A DNA stretch of 32,000 nt, taken from the NCBI GenBank assembly GCA_004284765.1, contig NQJD01000015.1, forward strand, positions 25,167 through 57,166. Reading direction: 5' to 3'. The position numbers and the translations under genes are program-made. Position 1 is the stretch's first letter, and each line of letters begins with the position of its first letter. Origin of the DNA: Candidatus Electronema aureum (GTDB lineage: Bacteria > Desulfobacterota > Desulfobulbia > Desulfobulbales > Desulfobulbaceae). The notes under the pieces are model-generated. The model did not search any database and was not told the DNA's origin. It saw only the letters and a program-made list of their open reading frames with translations. This document shows, piece by piece, positions 25,657-28,029 of the stretch.

Positions 25657-25788
25657 ATGACTGACATCATAGCCCCTGATCATCCTCAAAGCCGCCTGCA
25701 TCGACTCTTTGACCGCAACTTTCTCGACTACACCGCCTACGTTATCCGCGAGCGGGCCATCCCGGACATCGACGACGGCCTGAAACCA
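25657..25788 (+). pseudogene. duplicated 5' fragment (44 codons) of the ParC-like topoisomerase gene
   Basis: Codons 11-44 ('QSRLHRLFDRNFLDYTAYVIRERAIPDIDDGLKP') are identical in protein to codons 15-48 of the intact gene at 26014. Homology stops abruptly before the conserved 'VQRR', and the frame then reads unrelated sequence to a stop at 25878. Confidence 0.8.
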
Positions 25789-25849
25789 ATTTTCCGCAGC
25801 AACGTCCACAGCCAAGAAAACAATCTGCGCTATAACACGGAGGAACAGC

Positions 25850-26017
25850 ATGGAAAAGATTCTGTATCTTCATATTGAGAAACTGCCGGAAGGGGTTTAT
25901 CTGGCAACTTCAGAGTCTGTGCAGGGGCTTATCGCTCAGGGACGGACAGTCGCTGAAACCTTGGAAATCGCCCGTGGTGTGGCGCGGAAGCTCTCTGAAG
26001 CTGCAACAAACGTATGA
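25850..26017 (+). CDS. HicB-like / UPF0150-fold small protein (55 aa), orphan
   Basis: Not in the ORF track because it is under 60 aa. SD 'ggagga' lies 5 nt upstream. Translation: MEKILYLHIEKLPEGVYLATSESVQGLIAQGRTVAETLEIARGVARKLSEAATNV. The 'EG.Y.A.....GL..QG.T..E.L' pattern matches the HicB N-terminal / DUF1902-type fold. Its stop overlaps the downstream ATG (ATGA, 26014-26017). Confidence 0.5.
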   Translation: MEKILYLHIEKLPEGVYLATSESVQGLIAQGRTVAETLEIARGVARKLSEAATNV

Positions 26018-28029
26018 CCGATATAGCAACAAGCAATTGCGCTTCTCCTTCTCCGCAGAGCCGCCTGCACCGGCTCTTTGACCGCAACTTCCTCGACTAC
26101 ACCGCCTACGTCATCCGCGAGCGGGCCATCCCGGACATCGACGACGGCCTCAAGCCGGTGCAGCGGCGCATCTTGCAGACCTTGCACAACATCGACGATG
26201 GCCGTTACCATAAGGTGGCAAACGTGGTCGGCGAGACCATGAAGCTGCACCCGCACGGTGATCAGTCGATCTTTGCCGCCTTAGTTAATCTGGCGAATAA
26301 GGACTGCCTGATCGACCGCCAAGGGAACTTCGGCAACGTCCACACTGGCGATCAGGCTTCGGCAGCGCGCTACATCGAATGCCGCCTGACCCCGCTTGCC
26401 CGTGAGACCTTGTTCAACCGCGACTTGACTGAGTTCGTTGATTCCTACGACGGGCGAACGCAAGAGCCGGTAGCCTTGCCTGCTAAGTTGCCGCTGCTCC
26501 TCTTGCTCGGTGCAGAGGGCATCGCGGTCGGCATGGCGACTCGCATCTTACCGCATAACTTCTGTGAACTGCTGGAAGCACAGATTGCCTATTTAGAAGG
26601 CCACGATGTTACCTTGTACCCGGATTTCCCCGGTGGTGGCATTGTTGATGTCTCCAACTACGAGAGCGGCAATGGAAGGCTGCGCTGCCGGGCGCGGATG
26701 AACCTGAGCGACGACAAGACGATTACCATCACCGAACTGCCAGGCGGCCTGACTACGGAGGCCCTGATTGAGTCGGTGGAGCGAGCAGCGAAGGCAGGGA
26801 AGATCAAGATCGCCTCGATCAACGACTACACGGCAGAACGGGTTGAGGTGGAGATTAAGCTGCCGCGTGGAGTCTATGCCCAAGACGCGGTAGATGCGTT
26901 GTACGCCTTTACTGACTGCGAAGTGAGCGTCTCGCCAAATCTGGTCGTGATCAAGGACAACATGCCTTGCATCATGGGCGTGGAAGAAGTGCTACGGCAC
27001 AACACAGATAAGCTGCGCCGTGATTTGGAGCAAGAGCTGCGGATTGAGCGAGGCAGGCTCTTGGAGACCCTGCACGCCCGCAAGCTGGAGCAAATCTTTA
27101 TTGAAGAGCGGTTGTATAAGCAGATTGAAGAAGAGACCTCGCTTCAGGCAATCAGCAGTTCCATTCGTAACGCCCTGCTGCCCTTTGCTGACACGCTCAT
27201 CCGCAAGGTGAGTAAGGAGGATCTCGAACGGCTGCTGGAGATCAAGATCAAGCGAATATCCCGCTATGACTTGAATAAGCAGCGCAAGGAAGTCCGAGCA
27301 CTCGAACAGAGCATTACTGTGGTCGATACCCACTTGGCAGATGTGACTGGCTATACCAAAAAGTACCTGCAAGGGCTGCTCGACAAGTACGGTGCCTTGT
27401 TTCCCCGCCGGAGCGAGCTGAAGGAGTTCGACCAAGTAGATGCACGTGAGGCAGCCTTGAGTAATCTCCAGCTCGTCTATCACCGCGAGTCGGGTTTCCT
27501 GGGTTATAAAGTCGCGGCTGAGGACGGCAAAGATGGTCTGGCCGCTGCCTGCTCAGAGCTAGACCGCATCCTGCTCATCTTCCGGGATGGCCTCTACAAG
27601 GTAATCAATGTGCCGGATAAGCTCTTTGTTGACAGCGAGCTAATTTGGCTGGGGCCAGTGCGTAAGGAGCTAGTCTTCAACCTGATCTACCGGGCAGGCG
27701 CGCTCAACCTGAGCTACGTCAAGCGCTTCCGCACCCCGAAATTCATCCTCAACAAGGAGTACCGCCTGTTCGAGGAGCATAAACGCTCGGTCATCCAACT
27801 GCTCACCGTGGGCGAGAAGGTACGGGCCAGAATTAGCTTGGCACCTTCAGCACGGGCGCGGTCGAATGCCTTAGAGATTGACTTTGACGACTACCTGATC
27901 AAGGGCGAGGCTGCGCAAGGCAAGCGAATCAGCGAACGGGCAGTACGCAAGATCACGGACATCACCGGTCAGCCGAGAAAAGAAGCAGTGGTGGCAGTAT
28001 TGCCGGGGATGGCAGGGGAAAAGAGTTAA
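26014..28029 (+). CDS. parC: type IIA DNA topoisomerase subunit A (ParC-like, short C-terminal domain)
   Basis: 'DGLKPVQRRIL', 'HPHGD', 'IDRQGNFGN', catalytic-Tyr block 'ASAARYIECRL', 'GAEGIAVGMATRILPHN' and 'YAFTDCEVSVSPN'. It resembles the Bacteroidota-type topo IV A subunit. At 671 aa it has only a short CTD. No B subunit lies in the window. Confidence 0.8.
   Translation: MTDIATSNCASPSPQSRLHRLFDRNFLDYTAYVIRERAIPDIDDGLKPVQRRILQTLHNIDDGRYHKVANVVGETMKLHPHGDQSIFAALVNLANKDCLIDRQGNFGNVHTGDQASAARYIECRLTPLARETLFNRDLTEFVDSYDGRTQEPVALPAKLPLLLLLGAEGIAVGMATRILPHNFCELLEAQIAYLEGHDVTLYPDFPGGGIVDVSNYESGNGRLRCRARMNLSDDKTITITELPGGLTTEALIESVERAAKAGKIKIASINDYTAERVEVEIKLPRGVYAQDAVDALYAFTDCEVSVSPNLVVIKDNMPCIMGVEEVLRHNTDKLRRDLEQELRIERGRLLETLHARKLEQIFIEERLYKQIEEETSLQAISSSIRNALLPFADTLIRKVSKEDLERLLEIKIKRISRYDLNKQRKEVRALEQSITVVDTHLADVTGYTKKYLQGLLDKYGALFPRRSELKEFDQVDAREAALSNLQLVYHRESGFLGYKVAAEDGKDGLAAACSELDRILLIFRDGLYKVINVPDKLFVDSELIWLGPVRKELVFNLIYRAGALNLSYVKRFRTPKFILNKEYRLFEEHKRSVIQLLTVGEKVRARISLAPSARARSNALEIDFDDYLIKGEAAQGKRISERAVRKITDITGQPRKEAVVAVLPGMAGEKS

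Follow-up and report, generated by a model that had tools for sequence, protein, structure and literature searches.

Genomic islands, for example those that target tRNA or tmRNA genes, enter the end of a gene and bring a replacement end with them. A further documented class of mechanism combines one homologous end with one illegitimate end (PMC3240628; PMC5361080), and this homology-facilitated illegitimate recombination is described for Acinetobacter, Pseudomonas stutzeri, Streptococcus pneumoniae and E. coli conjugation (PMC3240628; cited in PMC5361080). Moreover, the displacement of Rhs and contact-dependent inhibition (CDI) toxin tips and of type VI secretion system (T6SS) effector-immunity modules leaves orphan 3' ends (PMC5361080). 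Here we analyse a displaced gene start in a stretch of 32,000 nucleotides (nt) from Candidatus Electronema aureum, a freshwater cable bacterium, in which the first 44 codons of the DNA topoisomerase IV subunit A gene parC (26014-28029) are repeated upstream at 25657-25788 (132 bases). A truncated gene of the HicB antitoxin family, hicB', lies between the two copies, and the upstream copy is called the orphan hereafter.

All positions are those of the whole stretch, referred to as the window, which belongs to the 2.94-Mb chromosome of this organism (OW818638.1, GCA_942492785.1). Loci labelled L0xx are the Electronema/Electrothrix parC loci that were compared with it, and P00xx denotes proteins. 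The locus of Ca. Electronema sp. TJ (L007), whose record contains a run of N at about 9020-9990 spanning the region upstream of parC and its first ~35 codons, was left out for the 5' end, and the equivalent L088 contig was taken instead.

Two alleles of the parC start and a foreign tract

Both copies open with ATG AC. GA. AT. (MTDI), at 25657 and at 26014. Their ungapped 102-nt cores (25687-25788 and 26056-26157) are identical at 94 of 102 positions, far above chance, and share a longest perfect run of 38 nt. The eight core mismatches all fall on third codon positions and are all synonymous, the protein encoded by both cores being QSRLHRLFDRNFLDYTAYVIRERAIPDIDDGLKP. The initial annotation had reported this duplicated start, with its MTDI opening, its identity of 34 residues and its eight synonymous third-position differences, and every one of these observations was recovered. 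Its statement that the upstream copy uses the A/T-ending codon each time applies to seven of the eight differing codons and fails at ctg/ctc, where the orphan is G-ending. The N-terminal tails that precede the cores are unlike in both length and sequence, with MTDIIAPDHP in the orphan and MTDIATSNCASPSP in the intact parC.

The copies are 369 nt apart and separated by a spacer of 225 nt (25789-26013). Homology of the orphan to parC stops sharply past ...GLKP, as had been described: the following 24 nt resemble the parC continuation no more than shuffled sequence does (739 of 2000 shuffles scored equally well). The same 24 nt, from 25802 on, match the hicB upstream region of relatives (5 of 2000 shuffles). 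Contiguous homology to L083 and L099 begins exactly at 25802, and the final 13-18 nt of the hicB leader are common to all hicB loci. The 13 nt between the orphan and this leader gave no significant match to the parC continuation or to hicB upstream regions. The orphan matches NF007209 and PF00521 at N-terminal positions only (48 bits, N-terminal 40 positions), and we therefore read it as a displaced gene start, a fragment and not a complete gene. It opens a 73-amino acid (aa) open reading frame (ORF) annotated as a hypothetical protein (CDV28_11546), for whose 29-codon tail, which reads through the hicB upstream region, no protein homologue was found. For annotation, this means that CDV28_11546 is a gene fragment and CDV28_11547 a truncated antitoxin, and that neither is a new protein. 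The features are collected in the table.

Table. Coordinates in the window of the duplicated parC start and of the elements between and around the two copies
Feature	Position	Strand	Description
Orphan parC 5' end	25649..25788	+	8 nt of native leader and codons 1-44 (MTDIIAPDHP and 34-aa core)
73-aa ORF	25657..25878	+	44 orphan codons and 29 out-of-context codons running into the hicB' leader and start
Illegitimate junction	25789..25801	.	13 nt (ATTTTCCGCAGCA) between orphan end and hicB leader
hicB cassette leader	25802..25849	+	includes Shine-Dalgarno GGAGG at 25839-25843
hicB'	25850..26017	+	55 aa, truncated HicB-family antitoxin gene; stop overlaps parC start (ATGA)
Intact parC	26014..28029	+	DNA topoisomerase IV subunit A, 671 aa; NF007209 913 bits (cut-off 644)
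Second 102-nt core copy	26056..26157	+	inside intact parC
Homologous crossover interval	26152..26180	.	left like the hicB'-parC allele (L096/L099/L083), right like L085

The two tails are of different types, both genus-wide. The short, orphan-type tail is the commonest (L083, L084, L087, P0012 and P0023), whereas the long tail of the intact parC was seen only together with the hicB' deletion allele (L096-L099). Over 140 nt, the orphan leader, tail and core share 93.6% identity with the beginning of the intact L087 parC, and the core protein of the orphan is identical to that of all Electronema ParC. When 11 further Electronema alleles were aligned, six of the eight orphan variant states occurred in the intact parC of other lineages, and the two private ones were GC>AT third-position transitions. 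A duplicate diverging in place would show similar divergence in tail and core and no foreign leader. Together with the affinity of hicB' (see below), this shows, at the level of sequence, that the two copies are diverged alleles and not a decayed duplicate, in agreement with the initial annotation. The argument it gave, from the synonymous-only pattern, stands under uniform mutation (P ~9e-6) and is weaker under a GC>AT bias, since half of the possible GC>AT transitions in this stretch are synonymous (0.5 per site). Because only two orphan states are private, this statistic has little power. No second orphan was found at ~16 other Electronema/Electrothrix parC loci, which indicates a single lineage-specific event.

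The arrangement is present in two assemblies. In an older, independent draft, the upstream gene, the 73-aa ORF and the 55-aa ORF have successive locus tags (CDV28_11545-47; TAA74910-12), a second contig was seen as well, and the three genes recur in the closed genome (CAK87117xx), which was obtained from a single-strain enrichment with size-selected Nanopore reads and Illumina polishing (PMC10030654). Since the gene order is the same in both, the orphan arrangement is not an artefact. The record does carry a metagenome-assembled genome (MAG) label, and related alleles exist in nature, which would fit a strain chimera or misassembly; yet the joint lies in non-repeated sequence, where assemblers do not switch paths, and the copies, only 369 nt apart, are well within single reads. 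We regard such an error as hardly credible.

The HicB-like mini-gene that had been recognized in the spacer is a truncated version of a gene that is complete in relatives, where a 75-aa gene is followed by a gene for the HicA toxin (PF07927, E 4.9e-22) that also encodes 75 aa and overlaps hicB. Codons 1-48 of hicB' are homologous to the 75-aa gene, with 94% aa identity over 51 residues to full-length HicB genes. We found hicA after the 75-aa hicB in PJ (L003) and in the metagenome or MAG contigs L083, L088, L089, L091, L092 and L095, and the order hicB-hicA-parC is carried by most Electronema. In the window, homology runs as far as codon 48 (25992) and is taken up again ~13 nt ahead of the parC ATG, with a deletion junction at ~25993-26000, and the 3' end of hicB, the whole of hicA and most of the spacer are lost. 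There is no hicA in the window, and hicB' adjoins no HicA toxin gene. The Pfam profiles HicB/DUF1902/UPF0150 gave only sub-threshold matches to hicB' (E 0.07-0.11). Database sources label the 75-aa family HicB/DUF1902, and its members are 70-85% identical across distant phyla, as expected of a mobile module. hicB' itself appears to be a remnant and not a working toxin-antitoxin (TA) system in the window.

The 55-aa hicB' allele, with the same deletion junction, the ATGA overlap and a long ParC tail (MTDIATNNCASPSP in L096-L098, MTDIATSNCASPSP in L099), was also present in L096-L099. Across the deletion junction and the tail, L099 and the window are identical at 80 of 80 nt. No parC fragment lies upstream at any of these four loci; L096, L097 and L099 have a TPR gene in front of hicB', and L098 is too short to show its upstream context. 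Because they share the deletion without the orphan, the loss of hicA is older than, or independent of, the orphan event.

The affinity of hicB' is foreign to that of the gene that follows it. Compared with L091, hicB' has 2/45 synonymous differences (0.04), whereas parC codons 81-340 have a value of 0.48; nucleotide identity is 96-98% in hicB' and 79% in the parC body. Across divergent lineages, the block formed by hicB, hicA and the first 240 nt of parC is 90-95% identical, the parC bodies are 77-81% identical, and the sequences upstream of hicB are unrelated. The hicB'-parC5' allele sits on at least three parC backgrounds, namely the window, the L083-like L099 and the L088-like L096-98, which indicates that the block moves between lineages by recombination.

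The right-hand limit of the foreign-looking tract could be placed as well. Mismatches between the window and L096 number 14 in 25839-26157, none in 26158-26180 and 21 in 26181-26301. L085, the closest overall relative (96% aa identity), differs from the window at 16 of 102 positions in the core and has an unrelated tail, after which divergence is ~4%. Up to codon 48, 24 of 26 informative sites favour L083 over L085. The crossover interval defined by these comparisons contains 26157, the equivalent of the orphan's last base. An insertion model predicts a breakpoint at this point, and such a coincidence is expected by chance about once in 16 within the 463 nt compared.

These data bear on the scenario of the initial annotation, in which an incoming block joined inside the resident gene and left its first 44 codons as a scar. 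The joining is in agreement with the crossover interval, which matches the orphan end. The size of the block is not: it had been thought to include a complete parC, possibly together with a downstream cassette and IS1, whereas the foreign-looking tract ends at 26152-26180, beyond which the gene is L085-like, the G+C content breaks at the parC stop, and no relative shares the cassette. The incoming block would thus be much smaller than had been proposed, at ~369 nt.

Origin of the orphan

The best model, which we consider probable, is a one-sided homologous plus illegitimate recombination in which the import of hicB' with a parC start displaced the resident start. The ancestor would have had an ordinary parC, with the short tail MTDIIAPDHP, directly downstream of a gene with a choice-of-anchor Q domain (choiceQ). 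DNA entering from another Electronema lineage would have brought the hicB leader, an already hicA-deleted hicB' and a parC start with the MTDIATSNCASPSP tail. On the right, an in-register homologous crossover would have occurred at 26152-26180, within the near-invariant first ~170 nt of parC; the anchor would be confined to this part because only there are the lineages 95-99% identical, divergence further in reaching ~17-20%. On the left, where the resident had choiceQ and no TPR-hicB context, the incoming DNA would have found no homologous partner and been joined illegitimately to the resident parC behind codon 44, 13 nt of filler being added. The net result would be an insertion of ~369 nt (25789-26157) between resident codons 44 and 45, consisting of the filler, the hicB leader from -48, hicB' and donor parC codons 1-48. 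An intact parC would have been rebuilt behind hicB', and the first 44 resident codons pushed upstream as the orphan. The same product would be expected of break-primed copying on a foreign template with subsequent end joining, which fits slightly better because the two breakpoints are so close. Which side was resident, and to which class the mechanism belongs, we infer from sequence comparison. Excision between the 102-nt repeats, which would restore the choiceQ-parC arrangement, is conceivable as an occasional event.

Several observations weigh against this model. With 16 differences, the orphan core is unlike that of L085, which the gene body does resemble; this would require a further event in which the 5' end of either L085 or the resident was exchanged. 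The inferred donor has no full counterpart among the sampled lineages: L091/L096 are nearest in hicB', and L099 is nearest in the leader between -48 and -14, in the tail and at the deletion junction. The illegitimate joint shows no clear microhomology. To the right of the junction-equivalent point, perfect identity extends over no more than 23-29 nt, a short stretch for a RecA crossover if the heteroduplex did not reach into diverged sequence. Moreover, parC is mosaic at many other places, and the coincidence of the breakpoint could be due to chance. Finally, among the ~16 Electronema/Electrothrix loci there was no relative with choiceQ-parC adjacency.

The direction of the exchange could also be reversed. 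The resident would then have been an arrangement as in L099/L083, with an 88-nt element, a TPR gene, hicB' and parC, into which choiceQ and 44 codons of a donor parC were imported; the left end would have been anchored by homology, the illegitimate joint placed 48 nt upstream of hicB', the TPR genes replaced, and the orphan itself would be foreign. In agreement with this, the 88-nt element upstream of choiceQ (23831-23918) is 93% like the sequence upstream of the L083 TPR gene and lies ~1.7-2.0 kb to the left of hicB in both the window and L083, where it would be the shared left anchor, and L099 combines TPR-hicB'-parC with an identical tail and an L083-like body close to that of the window. 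However, nothing to the left of the 88-nt element is syntenic with L083, hicB' is nearer to the L088 group than to L083/L099, so that the right side also shows import, and the coincidence of the 26152-26180 breakpoint with the orphan end would be left to chance. We therefore think this direction unlikely. A tandem duplication in situ (hicB leader, hicB, hicA and parC codons 1-44) in an ancestor that already possessed hicBA-parC, with the upstream hicBA copy and hicA lost afterwards and one copy altered by divergence or gene conversion, would account for the joint itself, a head-to-tail copy leading from parC codon 44 to the hicB leader, and the private orphan changes fit an AT-biased decay (GC>AT at third positions; P ~0.5 per site). 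Such a duplication would leave unexplained why the tails are of two genus-wide types and have diverged far more than the cores, and why the orphan leader matches the hicBA-less L087 allele and not the hicA-parC spacer. There is no hicBA or remnant of it upstream of the orphan, whose ATG is 10 nt from the choiceQ stop. With the several extra precise events that it requires, this history is very improbable.

It could also be that the orphan has been maintained for a function, as a translated 73-aa peptide mimicking the ParC N-terminus, as an upstream ORF controlling hicB'/parC, or as one arm of a programmed switch that, by recombination between the 102-nt repeats, would remove hicB' and give parC another promoter and tail. 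The reading frame is open from the native start onward, every difference is synonymous, and the repeats, which have a perfect run of 38 nt in common, would yield a functional chimeric parC on recombining. Yet the orphan was found only in E. aureum among the ~16 loci, it has only two private substitutions and no statistical signal of selection after the event, and excision would be irreversible. It lacks a Shine-Dalgarno sequence, a scan for promoters and terminators was empty, there was no Rfam match, and the predicted RNA fold is not unusual (z -0.75). A maintained function seems to us remote, and the orphan is most simply a pseudogene fragment. Islands were considered as well. A tRNA-linked island was ruled out, no tRNAs having been found, and for an integrase-mediated island the 225 nt between the copies hold only hicB', with no recombinase and no tRNA. 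No PF00521 gene, which could be a second parC remainder, was found in the 10 kb downstream.

The parC gene and its neighbourhood

The intact parC matches PF00521 with 353 bits (E 2e-105) and has orthologues throughout the Desulfobulbales. In Desulfobulbus relatives, the gene immediately before parC encodes ~610 aa, is conserved at the loci concerned and is presumably parE, judging by size and position; this parC-parE linkage has been lost in cable bacteria. At least seven kinds of upstream neighbour of parC occur in the latter (choiceQ, pabB-like, TPR, NACHT-like, thyX, gatB and unknown genes), and the ParC N-terminal tails vary along with the neighbours, for example MLPEKTPEQS, MSEILPDHP and MTTDIVSLP. 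One Electronema ParC, P0011 (695 aa), has an internal insertion of ~30 aa that resembles a diverged duplicate of the adjoining ERLIRKP.KEDIERLLDIRIKRISRYD segment.

Since parC lacks its own Shine-Dalgarno sequence and begins within the overlap with the hicB' stop, it is probably transcribed from the promoter of hicB' and translated, by coupling, through the hicB' ribosome-binding site. Such a role in parC expression would explain why the hicB' stub has been kept on several backgrounds. The hicBA cassette, or its remnant, would in this way have become the upstream expression context of parC.

The gene is a mosaic of L083-like and L085-like tracts with about ten switches (codons 120-197 are L083-like, codons 426 to the end L085-like), which indicates frequent homologous exchange among close Electronema lineages. 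In its first ~80-90 codons, synonymous diversity among Electronema lineages is about half of that in the rest (0.22-0.29 vs 0.37-0.53), and G+C content at third codon positions (GC3) at the start is 0.8-0.97 vs ~0.68 elsewhere in the gene. The 102-nt cores of most lineages are 1-5 nt apart, though the gene bodies are ~20% apart; the L085 core is exceptional, with 12-18 differences and a GC3 of 0.50. No stable RNA fold at the parC start accounts for the low diversity (z -0.75).

It is possible, and we put this forward tentatively, that the hicB(A)-parC5' block is a unit sweeping horizontally through the genus Ca. Electronema with the parC start (~170 nt) as its landing pad. If this were true, a TA cassette parked before an essential gene would spread and homogenize the parC start across bodies that are ~20% diverged, the low synonymous divergence and the GC3 of ~0.9 at the start would be by-products, and the orphan of E. 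aureum would mark a one-sided landing where left-hand homology was missing. Such a spread would be the more interesting lead from this locus.

Upstream of the orphan, choiceQ (24054-25646) encodes a 530-aa serine-rich repeat protein in which '...GGGIYS..GTVTLNNSTVSGNSVSS...' units recur and a choice-of-anchor Q domain forms the C-terminal part (NF041518, E 1e-20); it is listed in one source as a polymorphic outer membrane protein repeat protein. No homologue of it was found beside parC in any relative compared. The 88-nt element is non-coding and lies just downstream of a TMEM43-family gene. It contains an 8-bp inverted repeat and a TATAAT box, its L083 counterpart is at 4466-4379, and no other copies were seen in the window or the compared loci; a role as a shared promoter region or as an anchor of synteny is possible. 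A gene for a Tll0287-like PAS histidine kinase is located 12 kb upstream of parC on the same strand (10949-13642), and in sp. TJ and L088 its homologue is 1.7-4 kb away on the downstream side of parC (tracts compared: window 10949-17096, L007 15686-21846 and L088 10226-12228). A local rearrangement has shifted parC relative to this kinase cluster.

Immediately past the parC stop, G+C falls from ~0.56 to 0.38-0.47, which identifies the downstream cassette as a separate acquisition. This low-GC cassette (28048-31867) has three genes, for an AAA_15/AAA_21 ATPase (414 aa), a 314-aa protein of no family and a GmrSD_N/DUF262 protein (537 aa), and an IS1 transposase gene follows it just beyond the window end. 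No compared relative has this trio after parC. A distantly related trio of the same architecture (24-27% aa identity) is present in L090 (883-4749), inverted after hicB and a truncated 63-aa hicA; parC is not adjacent to it. The position of the cassette looks like a defence-island hotspot.

The locus as a whole offers a clean natural record of one-sided recombination inside an essential gene, in an uncultured multicellular bacterium for which an experimental study of recombination is not yet possible. It also indicates that cable-bacterial lineages exchange short tracts of DNA, their parC being mosaic and detached from parE.

Comparison with described systems

In the relatives, the genes upstream of parC have the organization of a type II hicBA TA system, the 75-aa DUF1902-like HicB gene overlapping the 75-aa HicA gene (PF07927). 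The window differs in having a 55-aa antitoxin stub, no toxin, and an ATGA overlap with parC.

With genomic islands that enter gene ends, the scar has in common that a direct repeat of the gene end flanks the insert and that the gene is intact. However, there is no integrase, the insert is only 369 nt, the two repeats represent diverged alleles that differ in their tails, and the left joint lies outside the repeat. The displacement of Rhs, CDI and T6SS modules offers another parallel, in that a module with its own conserved part and its cargo recombines in the conserved part and shifts the old end aside as an orphan. In the parC case it is the 5' end that is displaced and the result is a single orphan rather than an array; moreover, parC is an essential housekeeping gene, the protein cores are identical, and there is no functional diversification.

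The closest correspondence is with homology-facilitated illegitimate recombination. At one end there is a crossover in the parC 5' region and at the other a non-homologous joint (25788/25802, with 13 nt of filler), and non-homologous cargo, here the hicB' cassette, has been carried in. The inserted tract is foreign, as in that mechanism, with synonymous values of 0.04 in hicB' and 0.48 in the parC body. Three differences should be set against this: the event is here a reconstruction from sequence and not an observed one; the joint falls within the anchor gene, with part of the anchor duplicated and no recipient DNA deleted; and the crossover is only ~25 nt from the joint-equivalent point, so that break-primed copying with end joining fits at least equally well. 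We conclude that the scar represents a known class of recombination scar, an ordinary event recorded unusually clearly, and not a new molecular system.

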